61,022 nucleotides of DNA from an uncultured Candidatus Saccharibacteria bacterium (GTDB lineage Bacteria > Patescibacteriota > Minisyncoccia > Phycocordibacterales > UBA12079). Every line of letters begins with the position of its first letter. Position 1 is the stretch's first letter. The notes under the pieces were generated by a model, which searched no databases, was not told the origin of the DNA, and was given only the letters and a program-made list of their open reading frames with translations. Positions 702 through 49,907 of the stretch are shown piece by piece. The DNA lies in the NCBI GenBank assembly GCA_964486155.1, contig CAZAKQ010000003.1, forward strand, positions 1 to 61,022, read 5' to 3'. The position numbers were made by a program, and so were the translations under genes.

Positions 702-791
702 GAAGTCCGACCTCAGTAATGAAAAAACAAAACAAATTACTAAAGATTACGGTTATTTTAGTTAATCCGCCAGCTGGCGGAGTCGGACTTC
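702..791 (-). ncRNA. ~90-nt 3'-flank structured element, copy 1 (downstream of clpB)
   Basis: The closing stem is gaagtccgac (702-711) with gtcggacttc (782-791). Inside are the conserved ctaaagattacggttattttag hairpin and the 16-nt palindrome tccgccagctggcgga (766-781). The element lies 4 nt beyond the clpB stop. Confidence 0.5.
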
Positions 792-3482: not shown

Positions 3483-3498
3483 TCCGCCAGCTGGCGGA
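3483..3498. repeat. 16-nt G+C palindrome TCCGCCAGCTGGCGGA (family 1)
   Basis: This is a perfect palindrome in the clpB leader, 12 nt upstream of the ATG. Confidence 0.8.
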
Positions 3499-7658: not shown

Positions 7659-7674
7659 TCCGTCAGTTGGCGGA
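7659..7674. repeat. Family 1 palindrome, degenerate copy (tccgtcagttggcgga)
   Basis: It differs from the consensus at two positions. It lies in the infB leader, inside the TTG-extended ORF, which argues against that upstream start. Confidence 0.6.
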
Positions 7675-12468: not shown

Positions 12469-12496
12469 AAACTATTCCAGTTAACTGGAATAGTTG
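12469..12496. repeat. 28-nt palindrome (a)aactattccagtt|aactggaatagttg
   Basis: It matches the perfect palindrome at 28657-28684 at 27 of 28 positions. Confidence 0.75.
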
Positions 12497-12563
12497 AACT
12501 TATCTTTATTATAATATTATATATAATATTATAATATTAATTTAGAAGATATTGGTATAAAAT

Positions 12564-16062: not shown

Positions 16063-16578
16063 TTATTCAAATAAAATAGGGATTTCTAAAGCATTATCTA
16101 AATTCTTATCATTAGAAACATTATCTTTTCTTAATATTAAAATTCCTCGTTCTCCATACTCAGGTTTTTCAAATTCTAAAGTTCCTTTAAAAGGAATAAA
16201 ATTTTCGGAATAGTCCGCCGGCTGGCGGAGAGCTGTAACATAACCTTCTACAATGATTTTCCCATCCCAATCAGTTAAAATAACAGGGAAATCTCCTTCA
16301 AAATACCAATTTCCTACAGCTTGCCCTTCTAGAACTAAAGGGCTTGATATTTTTTGATTAGGTCTAACTGAATTTAATTCAATTAAATCTTGAACTTCAA
16401 AAATATTTCCAATGTTTTCTGTATAAGTTTTATCAGTTTTTGGGTCTCGACATTTTTGGGGATAAGATTCCATTATTGGATTTCCTGCTTCAGCACAAGA
16501 AATAAAATCATTTATTTCATTATTATTTATTTTATTAAAACTACAAACCCCTACACATTGAAGTGTACAAGGAGCCAT
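16063..16578 (-). CDS. Gmad2 Ig-like domain protein; the annotated ORF is probably the 3' part of a frameshifted longer gene
   Basis: It has the Gmad2-like block SPLVLEGQAVGNWYFEGDFPVILTDWDGKIIVEGY...FIPFKGTLEF. The frame stays open upstream to 16857 with no ATG/GTG/TTG. An ATG at 16823 in another frame precedes an A6 run. Confidence 0.6.
   Translation of the reverse strand: MAPCTLQCVGVCSFNKINNNEINDFISCAEAGNPIMESYPQKCRDPKTDKTYTENIGNIFEVQDLIELNSVRPNQKISSPLVLEGQAVGNWYFEGDFPVILTDWDGKIIVEGYVTALRQPADYSENFIPFKGTLEFEKPEYGERGILILRKDNVSNDKNLDNALEIPILFE
16214..16229. repeat. Family 1 palindrome variant (tccgccggctggcgga) inside a CDS
   Basis: It lies in frame within the Gmad2 gene and encodes LRQPAD. 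Confidence 0.6.
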
Positions 16579-16910
16579 GGGGTCATTATTGTGACGGCAA
16601 GCAGATTCGCATTCAGAAAAATTACCTTTGTGTTCGTTACACCAAGTTTTGTTAGTATACTCACATTCTTTTTCTTCGTTTAACCAATTAGCTTCGGTGG
16701 CTTCACAGGCTCCTGCGATTGTGTTAATAACATTTAAATCATTTTCTTGTTTGGGTTTTAAACCATAATTATAAACAAAGAAAATAATTAAAATTATAAT
16801 TGCTATATATTCAGTTTTTTCATTATAAATTTTTTTAATTAATAAAATAATTATAGATTATAACATATTAAAGAGTTTTATTTTTATATTTTTAATATAT
16901 AATAATTTTA

Positions 16911-17084
16911 TATGAAGCGAGCATATAATTACATCGTTCGGATTATATAAAAACATATTATTACATAATCGTTTTTATAAATCCTCACTTGAAATTATAT
17001 GAAGCGAGCATATAATTACATCGTTCGGATTATATAAAAACATATTATTACATAATCGTTTTTATAAATCCTCACTTGAAATTA
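16911..17084. repeat. Perfect 2 x 87-bp tandem duplication ending at the start codon of the VanY-like gene
   Basis: The unit tatgaagcgagcatataattacatcgttcggattatataaaaacatattattacataatcgtttttataaatcctcacttgaaatta occurs at 16911-16997 and 16998-17084. A related copy lies at 47906-47968. Confidence 0.9.
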
Positions 17085-22336: not shown

Positions 22337-22427
22337 GAAGTCCAACCCCAATATTAATAGAACAACATTCAACAACTAAAGTTCACGGTTATTTTAGTTA
22401 ATCCGCCAGCTGGCGGAGTTGGACTTC
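22337..22427 (-). ncRNA. ~90-nt 3'-flank structured element, copy 2 (downstream of rnc)
   Basis: The closing stem is gaagtccaac (22337-22346) with gttggacttc (22418-22427). Relative to copy 1, both strands have changed so that pairing is kept. It has the same core cacggttattttagttaatccgccagctggcggag. Confidence 0.5.
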
Positions 22428-22455
22428 GTTCAATAACTTAAGAAAAATATGAAAA

Positions 22456-22487
22456 GGGCGAAGGACTAAAGTCCTTCGCCTTTTTTT
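22456..22487. terminator. Bidirectional intrinsic terminator downstream of rnc
   Basis: The stem gggcgaaggac-taaa-gtccttcgcc is flanked by a T7 run on the plus strand and a T-run on the minus strand. Confidence 0.75.
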
Positions 22488-22491
22488 CTAA

Positions 22492-22507
22492 TCCGCCAGC
22501 TGGCGGA
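22492..22507. repeat. 16-nt G+C palindrome TCCGCCAGCTGGCGGA (family 1)
   Basis: This is a perfect copy, 28 nt beyond the rnc stop. Confidence 0.8.
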
Positions 22508-23232: not shown

Positions 23233-24144
23233 TTATTTTTTCTTTTTTAATATTTCAATTCCTTTTTTTATAATTGGACGCATATCATCATAAAATTCTA
23301 AATCTTTTAATTCTCCTAAGTGAAACCATCTTATGTCGTCAATTACTTTAGAACTTTTTTGATTTTTATCTAAATCTAAATCAGAAAATTTACTTTTAGC
23401 TAAATAAAATGTACTTTTTCTTCTAACATAACCATCTTCAGTATGATTAGTAACATATTCATGCTTTCCTAATTTATTTTCAATTTCTATATCTAAACCT
23501 AATTTATTTTTAGCTTTTCTTATCACACATTTTTCTATAGATTCATCTTCCTCTTTTTTTCCTTTTACTAGAGACCAATACCCAAAAATATTATGAGTTA
23601 AAGCTACTAAAATACTTTCGTTATGAATAGAATAAACCATTGCCCCTCCTAGTTCATGAATCACCATGTCTTTTTTATTTACTTCTTTTTTTCTAGATTC
23701 ACTCGTTTCGTGTTTTTGCGGTTCTCCTAATTCTTTATAAATAGTTCCCATTACTCCACTTATGAATCTACCACTGTTCTCACCTCCAAAAGCCTTAGAT
23801 AATTCAATGGCTTCGTTTATGGCTACTTTAGGAGGAACTTCCTTTCTGTCAGAATATAATAATTCACAAATCCCTATTCTTAAAATATTTCTATCAATTA
23901 CTGGGATTTTTTCAATAGGCCATTGAGGAGCAGCTTTTTGAATAATATTATCTAAATCTTTTTGCTTCTCAAAAACACAATTTATTACCTTTTGAGCAAA
24001 ACTAGGAATTTTGTCTGTTTGAGCAAAATCTTCAACATTCTTTAAAAGAATATTTTGAATATCTTCTTTATGATTGTCTTTTCTAACATCCCATTCAAAA
24101 AGAGATTGTAAAACTATTGATCTTAATAAATGTCTTTCTAACAT
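23233..24144 (-). CDS. nusB: NusB antitermination factor fused to a C-terminal degenerate Nudix-fold domain
   Basis: The N-terminal ~150 aa are NusB-like (LRSIVLQSLFEWD..., NEAIELSKAFGGENSGRFISGV). The C-terminus has a Nudix-box remnant, GKKEEDESIEKCVIRKAKNKLGL. I moved the start to the ATG at 24144 (MLERH) because the upstream ATG at 24189 lies inside a hairpin loop. Confidence 0.8.
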   Translation of the reverse strand: MLERHLLRSIVLQSLFEWDVRKDNHKEDIQNILLKNVEDFAQTDKIPSFAQKVINCVFEKQKDLDNIIQKAAPQWPIEKIPVIDRNILRIGICELLYSDRKEVPPKVAINEAIELSKAFGGENSGRFISGVMGTIYKELGEPQKHETSESRKKEVNKKDMVIHELGGAMVYSIHNESILVALTHNIFGYWSLVKGKKEEDESIEKCVIRKAKNKLGLDIEIENKLGKHEYVTNHTEDGYVRRKSTFYLAKSKFSDLDLDKNQKSSKVIDDIRWFHLGELKDLEFYDDMRPIIKKGIEILKKKK

Positions 24145-24243
24145 ATTTTTATAAATATAAATTAAAAACACCTCTGGGAAAGCAGTCATTCATTCGTAAA
24201 AGCTTTTCAGGAGGTGTTTGTAATTAAATTACAACTAACAAAT

Positions 24244-28444: not shown

Positions 28445-28496
28445 ATTCAAAACCAACGAACTTCATCGTCAGTCTTGGAAAAATGTTTGAACTTTT

Positions 28497-28586
28497 GAGG
28501 TCCGACTCCGCCAGCTGGCGGATTAACTAAAATAACCGTAATCTTTAGCTAATTGTTCTATCTTATCAATGCCGAAGTCGTACCTC
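28497..28586 (+). ncRNA. ~90-nt 3'-flank structured element, copy 3 (downstream of dnaE)
   Basis: The closing stem is gaggtccgac (28497-28506) with gtcgtacctc (28577-28586), followed by T7. It has the same core, including tccgccagctggcgga (28507-28522). It is co-oriented with dnaE. Confidence 0.5.
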
Positions 28587-28656
28587 TTTTTTTAAAACTC
28601 AAAATATTTCCCCTCACTTCCTCGAACTTCTTCTGATTTTATAGTTATTTAAAACT

Positions 28657-28684
28657 CAACTATTCCAGTTAACTGGAATAGTTG
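28657..28684. repeat. Perfect 28-nt palindrome caactattccagtt|aactggaatagttg
   Basis: It lies between the convergent dnaE and Nudix genes. A near-identical copy is at 12469-12496. Confidence 0.8.
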
Positions 28685-28689
28685 ATTTT

Positions 28690-30168: not shown

Positions 30169-30197
30169 TTTTTCATTATACCATGTTCAAAAAATTT

Positions 30198-30226
30198 CAA
30201 CACCTCAAGTCGTTGAGGTGTTCAGC
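30198..30226. repeat. Hairpin caacacctcaag-tc-gttgaggtgtt(cagc), copy 1
   Basis: Its first 30 nt are identical to 31420-31449, and the homologous flank extends to about 48 nt. It lies just beyond the stop of the STAS-like gene. Confidence 0.8.
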
Positions 30227-30241
30227 TCCTTTATAGCTATG

Positions 30242-30544
30242 TTAAGCAAAAATATTATCTAACTTAATATTTGAAACTGGTTCTTTTTTAATTGCCATAG
30301 ACCGAGCTACAATTTCAAACATTTTTGAAATATCTTCGTTTGTGTTTTCAAATATTAAATATTTATTTTTCTTAACTTTATATTCTTCTTTTAATTTTAA
30401 AAATTCATGAGCAGCAGATCTAGAAATAAAGTCAACGTTAGAAAAATCTAAAACAACAGAATTGTCTTTTGCTTTTTCTATCTCTTTTTGATAATCTCTT
30501 ATCAAATCACGAGAACTTAAGATTTTTCTTTTTATTTTTATCAT
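30242..30544 (-). CDS. STAS-like (DUF4325-type) small protein
   Basis: The ORF is 100 aa. It has VVLDFSNVDFISRSAAHEFLKL, typical of STAS-like DUF4325. It is paired with the upstream GHKL ATPase. Confidence 0.55.
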   Translation of the reverse strand: MIKIKRKILSSRDLIRDYQKEIEKAKDNSVVLDFSNVDFISRSAAHEFLKLKEEYKVKKNKYLIFENTNEDISKMFEIVARSMAIKKEPVSNIKLDNIFA

Positions 30545-31387: not shown

Positions 31388-31419
31388 TAATAAAATTATA
31401 TCATATTTTAAAAAACTAC

Positions 31420-31448
31420 CAACACCTCAAGTCGTTGAGGTGTTCAGC
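31420..31448. repeat. Hairpin caacacctcaag-tc-gttgaggtgtt(cagc), copy 2
   Basis: It is a direct repeat of 30198-30226. It lies just beyond the stop of the wHTH gene. Confidence 0.8.
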
Positions 31449-31458
31449 TTTTTGATGG

Positions 31459-31764
31459 CTATATTACTTGATAATACACAGATTGACCAACTGTGCCGAT
31501 TTGTTTAATTTTTCCTTCTTTTTCTAACTGATCAAGATATCTTTCTGCAGTTGCGTTAGATACATTACATAGTTCTTCTATATCATTATTCGTTATCTTT
31601 TCGTTATCGTTTAAAAATTCTAGAATTTTAGATTTATTTTCAATTTTGGCTTCTGCTTGTTTTGAAAGAATATTTTTCTTTCCTCTTCCTCCTTTTTGCA
31701 TACTAAAATAACTTCCAATAATAATTCCTGCTATTCCTATTATAATTAAAATTGTGTAGTTCAT
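31459..31764 (-). CDS. Membrane-anchored winged-helix DNA-binding protein
   Basis: The ORF is 101 aa with an N-terminal TM helix. It has a wHTH segment ITNNDIEELCNVSNATAERYLDQLEKEGKI. Confidence 0.55.
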   Translation of the reverse strand: MNYTILIIIGIAGIIIGSYFSMQKGGRGKKNILSKQAEAKIENKSKILEFLNDNEKITNNDIEELCNVSNATAERYLDQLEKEGKIKQIGTVGQSVYYQVI

Positions 31765-31825: not shown

Positions 31826-31900
31826 GGCCCTATCGTCTAATGGTTAGGACGCAAGCTTCTCAAGCTTGTAATCCGGGTTCGACTCCCGGTAGGGTCACCA
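31826..31900 (+). tRNA. tRNA-Glu(CTC), CCA encoded
   Basis: The sequence reads GGCCCTA..CAAGC-TTCTCAA-GCTTG..CCGGG-TTCGACT-CCCGG-TAGGGTC-A-CCA. Confidence 0.92.
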
Positions 31901-31999: not shown

Positions 32000-32905
32000 A
32001 TGCAAAAATATAATTTTATAAAAAAAGATATTATTGATAATTTATCCCATCAAAAAAATCCACCTTTTAAACTTGTTGAAATATGTCATGATATCAATAC
32101 TAATTATTTAAAAAATAGATATCAAGTAGTGATAGTATTTATCAGAGCTGTATTAGATTACATCCCTCCAATTTTTGGATATAAAACAACTTCTCAAGTA
32201 TATAGTAATTTAAAAAAATATAAATCATTCAAAAAAGCTCTAGAAGGAGTAGATAAATCTACAAGAAATCTTGCTGATGATATATTACACAATCAAGCAA
32301 CTATTAATGAAATAATAAAAGTTGATAAACCCTCTTGTGATTTTGTTAGAGATAATTTAACTCTTATTCTTACCTCTGTTATAAATCAATTAGAAAAAAA
32401 AGATTTACGAACTACTTCTCTAAATCGATTAGAAAAAAAATATGAAAAACCTAAATCTCAAATCCAATTATTTGAAAAATATATAAAAAATATAAGAAAC
32501 TGGAAAAAAGAATTTATAAACAGCAAAGAAGTTTGGATTTATTCAAAAGATAATTTATACCAAATTCATCAACAAGATGATATTAAAGATTTTTCAGAGC
32601 CTTGGACTCAAGTTTGGTTCAATTCAAAAGGTTCTGGTAAATATTATATAGATTTAAAATATAATGGTAGCATCATAAAACAATTTCCAATGATTTATTT
32701 TGATGGGGGAAGAGAAAATATAATTATGCCAAAAATGGAAACTTCTTCAAAAACTAATTTCTGGGAAAATAAAGATATTTATGGAGGTCATTATAAAAAT
32801 GTTGCTTACTATATAATTAAAGATAGTATAGAGTACAACCTATCAAAACTTTTAGGTTCAAATATTGAAAAGATAATTAAAAAGTCTAATATTGAGATAA
32901 GATAA
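32000..32905 (+). CDS. Hypothetical protein (orphan, between tRNA-Glu and the tRNA-Glu-like repeats)
   Basis: The ORF is 301 aa and Lys/Asn-rich. I recognise no family. Confidence 0.5.
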   Translation: MQKYNFIKKDIIDNLSHQKNPPFKLVEICHDINTNYLKNRYQVVIVFIRAVLDYIPPIFGYKTTSQVYSNLKKYKSFKKALEGVDKSTRNLADDILHNQATINEIIKVDKPSCDFVRDNLTLILTSVINQLEKKDLRTTSLNRLEKKYEKPKSQIQLFEKYIKNIRNWKKEFINSKEVWIYSKDNLYQIHQQDDIKDFSEPWTQVWFNSKGSGKYYIDLKYNGSIIKQFPMIYFDGGRENIIMPKMETSSKTNFWENKDIYGGHYKNVAYYIIKDSIEYNLSKLLGSNIEKIIKKSNIEIR

Positions 32906-33224: not shown

Positions 33225-33367
33225 TCTAGTGAATCCCCTGTGTGGGATAGTCGAAAGTCAGAAGAAAATTCGAGATTTTCTGAGACGGGGTCGAGAACAC
33301 TTTGTAAAATTTGAGTTTACGAAAAATTTTACTTAGTGATTCGTGACCGACTCCCGGTAGGGTCACA
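33225..33367 (+). ncRNA. tRNA-Glu-like structured unit U1
   Basis: It ends in cgactcccggtagggtcac, a 19-nt exact match to tRNA-Glu 31880-31898. It contains two AT hairpins set in G+C-rich junction helices. A 21-bp perfect hairpin follows at 33364-33409. Confidence 0.4.
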
Positions 33368-33409
33368 AATCGCCAAAGAGCAAATAGTTTTGCTCTTTGG
33401 CGATTTGTG

Positions 33410-40130: not shown

Positions 40131-41543
40131 CTAAAAACAAGCCGTTGTAGGTGCATGTAATTGCATATCCACTCCAGCTCCATTACAAAAACAATAATAA
40201 TCAGAAGTGTCATTATAAAAAAGAACACCTTCAGGAAAATCTGAACCACAAGGATCTGCAGTGACTTGGTCTGCTCGAATTCCTCCATCAACATCTAGTT
40301 TAGTCGCTGGAGAAGTTGTTCCTATTCCTATGTTTCCTTTAAAATAATTATCTCCACTTCCTGATGAATAGATACTCCCTGATGTTTTTATTTGAGTAAC
40401 ATTTGAATTTCCTAACATAACTTGATTAGAAATATCAGGTTCAGCATCGTATCCTATAGCTGTTGAGTTTGAATAAACAAATTGAGGAGTTAATGTAAAA
40501 ATTCCTGTTCCTTCATCTGTTATTTGTTCTTTTATATATTGGAGAGTATTAACGTCAATTATTTTCCAATATTCAGTATTAGAATTTAATCCTGACGGTA
40601 AAGAACCAGTCGAAGTTGGTTTTAAATTTATATAAGTATTATTAGCTCCAAATCCATGATCAGTGATAGTTACTTGATTTAAAACAGGAGTTACTGTTTC
40701 TACATCTTTTGCGTTAACTGTATCTTCTACAAAAGAAGTAAAAGCCAAACTTCCAATAGCAGTATTATAATTGCCATCATTATTTTGTCCTGCATAATGC
40801 CCTACTACAGTTTGATAAAGTCCTGTATTGAAATAACCGGAGTAAACTCCCAAAGCAACTTGAGAACCTCCAGCATTTGAACGACCTGCAAAATAACCTA
40901 CAGCAACTTGATTTTCTTCCAAATTATATGAACCAGCATTAACTCCAATAGTTGTTTGTTTATCCCCTATATTTTTATAAGCAGCATGATGGCCTATTGC
41001 AGTTTGATTATTTCCTATATTTTCTTGTCCTGCATTAAGACCAACAACAGTTTGAAAAGTTCCTATATTTTGATAACCTGCGTAAGAACCTATAGCTGTT
41101 TGATAATCCTGCGTATTTTGATATCCAGCAGATTCTCCGATTGATGTTGAATAATCTGTATCTGTTCCTGCATTTTTACCTAATTTTGTAGAATAACTAG
41201 AAGTCCATAATTTTATAAAATCCTCTCCTCCAAATTTAATCACTTGATCATTAGGAATATTTATAGAACCATTTATGTCTAATTTATAATTTGGTGTTGT
41301 AGTTCCAACCCCAATCCTCCCATTAACAGAATCAACATAAAAAGTATCAGTGTCTACAGTTAAATCAGTTGATATTGTAGTAGTAGCTAAAGTTGAAGCT
41401 CCTGTCACAGTCAATGTTCCTTCAGTATTAATATTTTCATTAATTGTTGTGGCTGCTGTTACTAACGTAAATACAAACAGAAATGTAATAGTTATTGAGA
41501 GTAAAATAGACAGAGGACCTTTATTGTGATTGATTTTTTTCAT
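40131..41543 (-). CDS. Secreted fibre/adhesin-like repeat protein, paralog A
   Basis: The ORF is 470 aa. It has an N-terminal anchor, repeated Q(T/V)A(I/V)G..AG..N(I/T)G units and the GNIGIGTTSPATKLDVDG motif common in tail-fibre-domain proteins. Confidence 0.7.
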   Translation of the reverse strand: MKKINHNKGPLSILLSITITFLFVFTLVTAATTINENINTEGTLTVTGASTLATTTISTDLTVDTDTFYVDSVNGRIGVGTTTPNYKLDINGSINIPNDQVIKFGGEDFIKLWTSSYSTKLGKNAGTDTDYSTSIGESAGYQNTQDYQTAIGSYAGYQNIGTFQTVVGLNAGQENIGNNQTAIGHHAAYKNIGDKQTTIGVNAGSYNLEENQVAVGYFAGRSNAGGSQVALGVYSGYFNTGLYQTVVGHYAGQNNDGNYNTAIGSLAFTSFVEDTVNAKDVETVTPVLNQVTITDHGFGANNTYINLKPTSTGSLPSGLNSNTEYWKIIDVNTLQYIKEQITDEGTGIFTLTPQFVYSNSTAIGYDAEPDISNQVMLGNSNVTQIKTSGSIYSSGSGDNYFKGNIGIGTTSPATKLDVDGGIRADQVTADPCGSDFPEGVLFYNDTSDYYCFCNGAGVDMQLHAPTTACF

Positions 41544-41581
41544 TTTTTTAATGTTTATATTTTTAAAGATAATTTATTGAT

Positions 41582-42805
41582 TTAATTATCTAATCTTACC
41601 CAACCACTACTTTTACATCCCCAAAAACTATCATTATCTTCATTGTAAAACATTGAGCCTCTTAACAATGATGAACAGGTTGTAGAAGCTGTTTGATGAA
41701 CCTTAACTAATCCATCAACATCTAGTTTAGTCGCTGGAGAAGTTGTTCCTATTCCTATGTTTCCACTACTAATAGTTGTTCCTGTACCATCAACTGCTGT
41801 TCCAAAAATTAGATTACCAATAGTCATCGTTTCAGAATTAATTGCTGTAGGAGAATCGATATCATATCCTATAACTATATTCGCGCTTCCTGTAGTTAAA
41901 TTATCACCGGCTTGATAGCCAAATAATATATTGTTATCTGCCCCAGTTAGAATTCCATAACCCGCCTTATATCCCATTATTAAATTATTCGATACATCTG
42001 ATGCGCCAACCATTCCATAACCTGCTTGAAATCCAAAAATAGTATTATTATGACCATACCTATTGTAATATAAAGTATGATCTCCAAGAGCAGTGTTATA
42101 ATTACCTGTCACATTTCTTCCTAATGCATAATGTGGTCCTATTGCAGTATTATAAGTACCAGTAGTATTAAAACGTAAGGCATATGATCCTAAAGCCAAA
42201 TTATAACTACTTGTAGTACTATCACGCAAAGCGTTATAACCTAAAACAGTATTATATGAGCCTTCTATATTACTACGTAAAGCACTAACACCAACAGCTG
42301 TATTTAACCCACCAGTAGTATTTGCACTCATAGCTCCTTGTCCAATAGCAGCATTAGCAACACCAGTAGTATTAGCAACTAAAACACCTGATCCGATTGC
42401 AGTGTTATAAGCACCTGTAGTTAAACCAGCTAAAGTATTTTCACCCAAAGCTACATTATAACTAGAATTATCACCACTGGAATGTGTCATTAAAAAGTTC
42501 CCAGAATTTTTTCCTATAAATACATTAGCTCCTGTTCCTTCAAAAGGAAGATAATCGTGAATAAATTTATTTCCATTTTTATAAATTACACCTATTGATG
42601 AACCTGTTGTTGTCTCTAATTCTAAACTTGTTGATATTGTAGTAGTAGCTAAAGTAGAAGTTCCTGTCACAGTCAATGTTCCTTCAGTATTAATATTTTC
42701 ATTAATTGTTGTGGCTGCTGTTACTAACGTAAATACAAACAGAAATGTAATAGTTATTGAGAGTAAAATAGACAGAGGACCTTTATTGTGATTGATTTTT
42801 TTCAT
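41582..42805 (-). CDS. Secreted fibre/adhesin-like repeat protein, paralog B
   Basis: The ORF is 407 aa. It has YadA-head-like repeats (NTAIG..AL..NTTG). Its N-terminal region and the GNIGIGTTSPATKLDVDG block match paralog A. Confidence 0.7.
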   Translation of the reverse strand: MKKINHNKGPLSILLSITITFLFVFTLVTAATTINENINTEGTLTVTGTSTLATTTISTSLELETTTGSSIGVIYKNGNKFIHDYLPFEGTGANVFIGKNSGNFLMTHSSGDNSSYNVALGENTLAGLTTGAYNTAIGSGVLVANTTGVANAAIGQGAMSANTTGGLNTAVGVSALRSNIEGSYNTVLGYNALRDSTTSSYNLALGSYALRFNTTGTYNTAIGPHYALGRNVTGNYNTALGDHTLYYNRYGHNNTIFGFQAGYGMVGASDVSNNLIMGYKAGYGILTGADNNILFGYQAGDNLTTGSANIVIGYDIDSPTAINSETMTIGNLIFGTAVDGTGTTISSGNIGIGTTSPATKLDVDGLVKVHQTASTTCSSLLRGSMFYNEDNDSFWGCKSSGWVRLDN

Positions 42806-42820
42806 TTTTTTAATGTTTAA

Positions 42821-42905
42821 AGTTATTAATTTTTTATGTTCTTTGTTTTTTAAACTTAATCCTAGGTCTGACCTCGGCTAAGTAGAGTTATTAATTTTTT
42901 ATGTT
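42821..42905. repeat. 20-bp perfect direct repeat flanking a 45-bp G+C-richer insert
   Basis: agttattaattttttatgtt occurs at 42821-42840 and 42886-42905. The insert contains cctaggtctgacctcggcta. Confidence 0.8.
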
Positions 42906-47765: not shown

Positions 47766-47815
47766 ACAAAGGTTTGAAGAACAAGTGAATAAGATTATAA
47801 TTCTGATTCACTTGT

Positions 47816-48039
47816 TTTTATTATCGACGTAGTGCGAGAGTAATAGAAAAATGTAGCAAAGCGAAATTTTTCTATTGCCGAGCCGAGGAGTTAATATAAG
47901 GAAACCATATAATTCCTACGTTCGGATTATATGAAAATAAATTTTCACAAATCCTCACTTGAAATTATAAGACGAAGTGCTTTTATTATCGACGTAGTGC
48001 GAGAGTAATAGAAAAATGTAGCAAAGCGAAATTTTTCTA
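47816..48039. repeat. Nested repeat block: two 59-bp direct repeats flanking a copy of the 87-bp-family element
   Basis: ttttattatcgacgtagtgcgagagtaatagaaaaatgtagcaaagcgaaatttttcta occurs at 47816-47874 and 47981-48039. Between them, 47906-47968 is related to the 16911 unit (catataatt..cgttcggattatat...aaatcctcacttgaaattat). Confidence 0.85.
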
Positions 48040-49679: not shown

Positions 49680-49786
49680 GAAATCCGACCTCAGTATTAA
49701 TACTAAAAGAAATCCGACTTCGTATTCTATAAAACAAAATTAATTATCTAAAGATTATTGGTATCTTAATTAAGAAGTCGAATTTC
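49680..49786 (-). repeat. Degenerate copy 4 of the ~90-nt 3'-flank element, lacking the 16-nt G+C palindrome
   Basis: The sequence is gaaatccgacctcagta...ctaaagattattggtatcttaattaa|gaagtcgaatttc. It aligns with copy 1 except that TCCGCCAGCTGGCGG is absent. It lies downstream of the P-type ATPase gene. Confidence 0.45.
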
Positions 49787-49907
49787 GTACTAAAATTTAT
49801 GAACATCTTGATTAAAAAATCAAACTTTAATTTTGGGTTGTTTCACTATCGTTCACAAAGACGAATTTTACGAGGCAAAATTCGTTAACAAAAAACTTTA
49901 GTTTTTT

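Follow-up and report, generated by a model that had tools for sequence, protein, structure and literature searches.

The window, i.e. the whole stretch of DNA that was analysed, comprises 61,022 nucleotides of contig CAZAKQ010000003.1 and has a G+C content of 27.9%. It carries genes for ClpB, RNase III, DnaE and a P-type ATPase, each of which is followed by a copy of a repeated element of 77–91 nt without an open reading frame. Copy 1 (long form, 90 nt; 702–791, minus strand) starts 4 nt past the clpB stop codon, copy 2 (long form, 91 nt; 22337–22427, minus strand) begins 108 nt past the rnc stop codon, and copy 3 (long form, 90 nt; 28497–28586, plus strand) lies 52 nt past the dnaE stop codon. 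These three copies and the identity of the four genes are as given by the sequence-only reading of this DNA. The fourth copy called for a revision: a degenerate copy had been placed at 49680–49786 and one is indeed found near 49.7 kb, but the real unit is a 78-nt short form at 49709–49786 (minus strand), 177 nt past the ATPase stop codon, with a 13-bp terminal stem and AT-decayed arms. This unit sits inside a decayed fifth, or host, copy, whose 5′ part (49787–49828, minus strand) and 3′ part (49680–49708, minus strand; …TACTGAGGTCGGATTTC) align to the family consensus once joined, the remainder having the same form as in the nested copies of relatives (TTATAGCACCAATACTGAGGTCG…). A distance of 4–60 nt from the stop codon, proposed as a constant feature, therefore holds for copies 1 and 3 and fails for copies 2 and 4. 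A covariance model built from copies 1–3 recognized copies 1–4 with E-values of 1e-29, 4e-28, 3e-27 and 3e-10, respectively (116 bits for copy 1).

The surroundings of copies 2 and 3 contain further structures. Between rnc and copy 2 lie a solitary 16-nt palindrome, described below, and a canonical terminator-like hairpin (22457–22480, minus strand). Copy 3 is enclosed in a larger imperfect inverted repeat on the plus strand (left arm, 28445–28496; right arm, 28587–28650), which is found without the inner element in relatives L012 and L109. The open reading frame upstream of rnc (23233–24189) combines NusB and NUDIX domains, the NUDIX match being absent or faint in the gene of the closest relatives.

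Other repeats and hairpins were noted in the window. A 17-bp hairpin (625–664) separates copy 1 from the tRNA at 482–564; its counterpart in L159 has the same loop (AAAAATATTACTTTTT) and a different but complementary stem. The hairpin CAACTATTCCAGTTAACTGGAATAGTTG, present at 12470–12497 and 28656–28685, is terminator-like on both strands, and versions of it with covarying stems around the same CCAGTTAACTGG core occur in L107 and L015. Another hairpin, AACACCTCAAGTCGTTGAGGTGTT, is repeated at 30183–30244 and 31405–31466 and is also found after dnaE in L107 and L109. A perfect 87-nt tandem duplication (16908–17081) has a related copy at 47891–47972, next to a pair of 62-nt repeats (47813–47874 and 47978–48039, 98% identical); a 'AAATCCTCACTTGAAA'-like sequence after dnaE in L107 is similar to the repeats at 16908–17081 and 47813–48039, which make up a further repeat family of this clade. 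The tRNA at 31826–31897 has its 3′ end repeated at 33336–33369 (82% identity); the two enclose an open reading frame (32000–32905) without a Pfam match, and the segment 31826–33369 could represent a small element that integrated at this tRNA. Finally, two adjacent open reading frames without a Pfam match (40131–41543 and 41582–42805, in the region 40131–42829) share 218 nt at 94% and 54 nt at 100% identity as well as internal repeats, and probably encode paralogous repeat proteins.

The basic unit of the family measures 77–78 nt: a 13-bp G+C-rich terminal inverted repeat, GAAGTCCGACCTC … GAGGTCGGACTTC, surrounds an A+T-rich interior of about 52 nt, in which CTTTAG is conserved (family consensus, GARGTCCGAC CTC TTAAYTAAGATAAYCGTAAYC TTTAG TMATTTGTTTTGTTTTACCAATACTGAG GTCGKACYTC). 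In gene sense, the long form reads left arm GAAGTCCGAC, palindrome TCCGCCAGCTGGCGGA, TTAACTAAAATAACCGTAATCTTTAG, about 28 diverged bases and right arm GTCGGACTTC. Within the window, a closing stem of 10 bp shows double changes that preserve pairing in three different copies, and the covariation already noted there extends to the family as a whole, in which the stem is longer than had been supposed: over 58 copies, 13 bp are paired at 95%, and compensatory double changes affect 7 of the 13 pairs, a number reached by none of 500 shuffles. Position 3, for instance, is never mismatched (38 A-T and 22 G-C pairs; n = 60); position 11 is C-G or T-A; and 24 of 60 copies have a C.T mismatch at position 6. 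RNAalifold predicted the terminal stem alone, internal structure not being conserved. Indeed, the nearly invariant CTTTAG is conserved as sequence and not as structure, and the CTAAA/TTTAG hairpin that had been proposed inside the element lost its support in the wider family, where this pairing shows only one-sided changes and is impossible in the TTAACGTGTATACC subfamily. The earlier failure to match the element to a known motif was borne out: only tRNAs passed the gathering threshold in an Rfam search, E-value scans giving weak generic hairpin matches far below it. BLAST against plasmid and phage collections and scans of viral contigs produced no match for the element either; the viral-contig hits that did arise were chance matches in unrelated contexts.

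The 16-nt palindrome TCCGCCAGCTGGCGGA, carried by the three long copies (766–781 in copy 1, 22402–22417 in copy 2 and 28507–28522 in copy 3), is a separate small repeat that is independent of the element. It occurs seven times in the window with at most two mismatches, against zero expected from shuffles. Solitary occurrences are found at 3483–3498, 13 nt before the clpB ATG (a palindrome missing from the clpB leaders of L159–L162), and at 22492–22507, directly past the rnc stop codon, as part of a partial element-like stretch (22432–22507); L103 has the same palindrome after rnc. A diverged version, TCCGTCAGTTGGCGGA, lies at 7659–7674, about 35 nt before the infB ATG. The palindromes before clpB and infB could influence translation start or be a binding site. 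The palindrome is also present, at least seven times, in the portion of the FLOH genome that was sampled (see below), as well as in L103, sometimes at the tips of other hairpins. Its presence inside the element is, on the other hand, peculiar to the window genome: it is absent from all of the approximately 60 copies of relatives, which are always of the 77–78-nt form, and copies of other species have different G+C-rich palindromes at the same spot, right after the left arm. Note that matches to the 16-mer at position 16214 of the window and in L034 and L062, considered as additional repeats, were discarded as coincidences, being coding sequence for the peptide PPAGG: the window near-copy (16214–16229) lies within a Gmad2-domain gene and is carried at the matching place by L103, and the near-copies of L034 and L062 lie in unrelated genes.

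Comparison of the copies with one another suggests how the long form may have arisen. The 26 nt of copy 3 that follow the palindrome are 100% identical to copy 1, versus 73% and 54% identical to the positional orthologs, while for its 3′ part the identities are 82% and 75% with the positional orthologs, versus 69% and 56% with the paralogs. Judged by these identities, copy 3 is a chimera, with a 5′ half like copy 1 and a 3′ half like its positional orthologs. The simplest account would be that the palindrome entered one copy just past the left arm, and that a tract spanning approximately positions 4–52 was then copied to the other two long copies by gene conversion. Gene conversion would account for the near-identical 5′ halves and diverged 3′ halves of copies 1–3, and, together with the entry of the palindrome, for the modular look of the element, i.e. 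a constant 5′ half followed by a variable 3′ half.

The number of copies in the genome from which the window derives was estimated from the assembly graph, in which the depth of the core unitig, about three times that of single-copy sequence, corresponds to about three core copies in the whole genome, equal to the three copies in the window. The listed loose ends of the graph all lead to sites in the window, namely copy 1, copy 2 and the solitary palindrome at 22492. Because of this depth and because the loose ends all trace to the window, the genome holds only these copies. Contigs of public assemblies end inside copies, and one of them runs from copy 3 to copy 2. Across 10 population contigs the copies do not differ, and deletion joints were not encountered. 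The family thus seems nearly extinct in this genome, being represented by three full copies and a nested pair of decayed copies, all of them fixed, and we infer that the window copies are immobile relics. The window stems from a marine population of Patescibacteria (Paceibacteria). Marine metagenome contigs encode an RNase III identical to that of the window, and marine and seawater metagenome DNA runs contain the region. The relatives of its DnaE are all metagenome-assembled genomes of Patescibacteria (Paceibacteria/Parcubacteria), with 81% identity at best.

Exact core patterns of the element gave no match in the GTDB genome collection or in a first scan of metagenomes, from which this population is evidently missing, although L002 does carry the sequence. 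In 80 dnaE loci of other Patescibacteria, too, there was no copy. Closer relatives were retrieved by means of RNase III and ClpB homologues with 83–90% identity, and a gapped pattern made from the conserved parts of the element yielded 48 loci in a scan of metagenome contigs. Running the covariance model on relatives, as the sequence-only reading had recommended, recovered dozens of dispersed copies: the 48 loci gave 78 matches, of which approximately 60 are distinct, in a sample of relatives that covers each genome only in part and whose selection relied on a pattern derived from the element. At least 28 copies are present in one genome of about 0.7 Mb (GCA_900089805.1), where they span 85–582 kb of the 594-kb contig FLOH01000029.1. 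The family was found in one clade of aquatic Paceibacteria, with marine and lake relatives.

We then compared orthologous gene ends between species. After dnaE, the site is occupied in the window, L107 and L109 and empty in L011, L012, L103 and L105, the empty site of L012 having to be read with caution because its matching flanks belong to the outer inverted repeat. The dnaE-linked copies of L107 and L109 share their GAGG…CCTC arms with copy 3, that of L109 also the C.T mismatch. After clpB, the site is occupied in the window, L159 and L160, by a short-form positional ortholog of copy 1 in the relatives, and empty in L161 and L162; in the latter a tRNA lies within 15 nt of the clpB stop codon. 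The rnc 3′ end of L105 harbors a positional ortholog of copy 2 that carries other insertions. Several of the window copies are therefore old insertions, since sister species are occupied at the same sites. Past the clpB-linked tRNA, L160, L161 and L162 display one or several rounds of hairpins (ATACAATATTAAAACAGCAC…GTGCTGTTTTAATATTGTAT) with inverted copies of the tRNA 3′ end behind them, an arrangement that looks like scars of repeated integration or excision.

The flanks of the copies carry the marks of a preferred insertion site. In all 60 copies examined the 3′ flanking base is T, followed by T or A and then by A, and 52 of the 60 have a C or T immediately before the left arm; no direct repeat that could be a target-site duplication was found in the flanks of these 60 copies. 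In addition, many copies, among them copy 4, are nested in another copy at one recurring internal site (…CTTTAG NNY^TTATAGCAC…). The family thus combines several traits of miniature inverted-repeat transposable elements (MITEs): it is short and non-coding, has 13-bp terminal inverted repeats and is present in multiple dispersed copies, as in the FLOH01 genome, the window genome itself holding about three intact and two decayed copies. Classic MITEs carry target-site duplications, which these copies lack. The family likewise shows the hallmark of REP sequences and REPINs, an extragenic, hairpin-forming palindrome with a covarying stem.

Taken together, these observations lead us to consider the element as a member of a non-coding, hairpin-forming family of mobile repeats, MITE- or REPIN-like, found in one clade of aquatic Paceibacteria; we put the probability of this interpretation at about three in four. 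Spread would occur at the DNA level through an intermediate that requires pairing of both ends, which would explain why the ends covary, and insertion would target A+T-rich DNA between genes, where a pyrimidine is followed by T(T/A)A, the target not being duplicated. Against mobility counts the fact that several copies are kept at the same gene ends in species whose proteins are just 83–90% identical. Neither a new insertion nor an excision was observed directly. The window contains no transposase or integrase gene, neither the window nor the surroundings of solitary arms in the partial genomes of relatives yielded an autonomous element or transposase with these ends, and no RAYT (Y1 HUH) gene was seen in approximately 0.6 Mb of loci from the window genome and related ones. 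Long-range pairs of arms, and the open reading frames next to solitary arms, were inspected as a possible autonomous element, and only interrupted host copies and unrelated open reading frames came to light. A bolder version of this interpretation combines two propositions: that a transposition system undescribed in Patescibacteria moves the family as a single-stranded hairpin, requiring paired ends and inserting next to Y|T(T/A)A with no duplication of the target, and that the few copies kept after clpB, dnaE and rnc across species have been co-opted as hairpins protecting mRNA 3′ ends in reduced genomes. We regard this combination as rather unlikely.

The sequence-only reading had favored another explanation, namely a functional RNA element of 3′ untranslated regions, whose closing stem would end or stabilize the transcript as an RNA hairpin or would yield a 3′-derived small RNA. 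Several observations speak for it. The four window copies all have the orientation of the upstream gene; copies 1 and 3 are placed between the stop codon and the next terminator-like hairpin; the stem covaries, with predicted RNA folds of −22 to −31 kcal/mol (z-scores of −2.6 to −4.7); and copies have been kept after clpB, dnaE and rnc in several species. The constant co-orientation that had been put forward for the window weakens to a moderate bias at the level of the family, however: in 37 of 54 cases (69%) the element and the upstream gene point the same way, and between tandem genes sense copies outnumber antisense copies by 22 to 8, but the other 17 of the 54 run antisense to that gene; convergent gene pairs flank six copies and divergent pairs five, as exemplified by the copy upstream of typA in L107. 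Moreover, in the well-sampled genome the orientation of the copies agrees with GC skew in 18 cases versus 8, about the agreement obtained with gene direction, so that effects of replication direction and of gene direction are inseparable.

Further arguments against a dedicated RNA signal come from the sites and from the stem itself. In sister species the corresponding gene ends carry no copy, a terminator-like hairpin separates copy 2 from rnc, and nesting and dozens of insertions would be unexpected for such a signal. Three wobble pairs on the sense strand of copy 4 had seemed to hint at a sense RNA; this hint vanished over 60 copies, in which G.U pairs number six on the sense strand and seven on the antisense strand, i.e. 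without strand asymmetry, and the C.T mismatch at position 6 recurs in two fifths of the copies. The internal structure is not conserved and the 3′ flank is generally not U-rich. Finally, metatranscriptome contigs from the same studies contained nothing from the 19–32.5-kb stretch of the window, which includes copies 2 and 3. Copies in antisense or between divergent genes, orthologous sites without a copy, the location of copy 2 past a terminator-like hairpin, the lack of conserved internal structure and the lack of strand asymmetry weaken this explanation to the point that we consider it improbable, and, along with the dozens of dispersed copies, the nesting and the invariant 3′ base, they reverse the earlier preference for a 3′-untranslated-region element over a MITE. 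The best reading is that the element is not a dedicated gene-end RNA signal and that any RNA effect at 3′ ends is incidental. Copies 1 and 3 probably lie inside the clpB and dnaE transcripts, to which they would add a stable 3′ hairpin according to the folding predictions; since REP elements protect mRNA, these two copies may, by analogy, incidentally do likewise. The orientation bias and the near-invariance of CTTTAG could nonetheless be signs of function.

It is also conceivable, albeit quite improbable, that the element is kept as a chromosomal site at which the arms bind a dimeric protein involved in nucleoid organization, partition or recombination. The arms are the most conserved part of the element, each 13-bp arm being nearly palindromic (GAGGTC-S-GACCTC), hairpins made of arms only occur (e.g. 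L107:17922–17952 and L146:4181–4212), and the conservation of CTTTAG at the sequence level would suit a binding site. A fixed binding sequence should not covary between arms, though, as it does in 7 of 13 pairs, and the number of copies varies from about 3–5 here to at least 28 in a relative. The nesting and decay of copy 4 and its host copy indicate a lack of constraint, and no candidate protein was identified. As for an integron attC-like site or another site-specific recombination target at the boundaries of gene cassettes, the arms of copy 2 (GTCCAAC…GTTGGAC) do fit the attC core RYYYAAC…GTTRRRY and the stretches bordered by copies 2 and 3 are much shorter in L011, but we rejected it as highly improbable, since only copy 2 fits and the family consensus, GTCCGAC/GTCGGAC, departs from that core, the copies are single, dispersed and nested and form no co-oriented array, no integrase or recombinase is encoded in the window, and the intergenic regions of the clade vary at many sites devoid of the element.

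The repeats described here constitute a new family within a known class of elements and, as such, a fairly ordinary genomic repeat. Repeat families of this kind are apparently undescribed for Patescibacteria (CPR), a literature search having returned no account of such repeats in this phylum, and the main value of the finding is as an annotation and assembly caveat for these organisms: the repeats fragment metagenome assemblies of such genomes, as contigs of public runs stop within copies, and the element marks the hypervariable intergenic regions of the clade. The case also calls for caution in motif discovery from metagenomes, as a mobile repeat in decay can, through gene conversion and nested palindromes, pass for a modular structured RNA. 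Were a mobilizing enzyme to be found, the covarying ends and the insertion without target duplication would suggest a mechanism that depends on the hairpin, in a phylum whose mobile DNA is poorly known.

The element resembles several known systems in part. Intrinsic (Rho-independent) terminators share with it a G+C-rich stem near gene ends, and copy 3 is followed by T7; in contrast to them, the element has a loop of more than 50 nt (52–65 nt) and, in most copies, a T(T/A)A flank instead of a U-run, terminator scans skip it, and separate canonical hairpins are found nearby. The ERIC/IRU sequences of enterobacteria are, like it, imperfect palindromes of about 100 nt that reside in transcribed intergenic regions, show an orientation bias and give rise to larger variants through insertions at fixed internal sites; their sequence and host phylum are unrelated, and the ERIC stem is paired over most of its length, whereas only the 13-bp ends of the element are. 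MITEs such as the Correia elements of Neisseria are similarly small and non-coding, with terminal inverted repeats and many dispersed intergenic copies that are often co-transcribed, that nest in one another and whose presence differs between related genomes. The element differs from them in that its targets are not duplicated, no parent insertion sequence sharing its ends was found, its ends covary as if pairing prevailed over a fixed sequence, and its sequence is unrelated to any known MITE. The last comparison is with REP sequences and REPINs, which are mobilized by RAYT (Y1 HUH) transposases, and with palindromes derived from IS200/IS605. The REPIN likeness has its limits: the element has a long loop of 52 nt with a conserved CTTTAG, far fewer copies than typical REPIN populations and a T(T/A)A motif on its 3′ side instead of a GTAG-type motif on its 5′ side, and neither RAYT nor TnpA was seen in the available sequence. 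As in those systems, however, the whole unit is an extragenic hairpin with a covarying stem, the target is not duplicated, a short conserved motif flanks one side only, and a role as mRNA 3′ stabilizer is possible; the companion 16-nt palindrome, for its part, resembles a single REP. Because of the lack of target duplication, we infer that the family is closer to REPINs or to IS200/IS605-type hairpin elements than to cut-and-paste MITEs.
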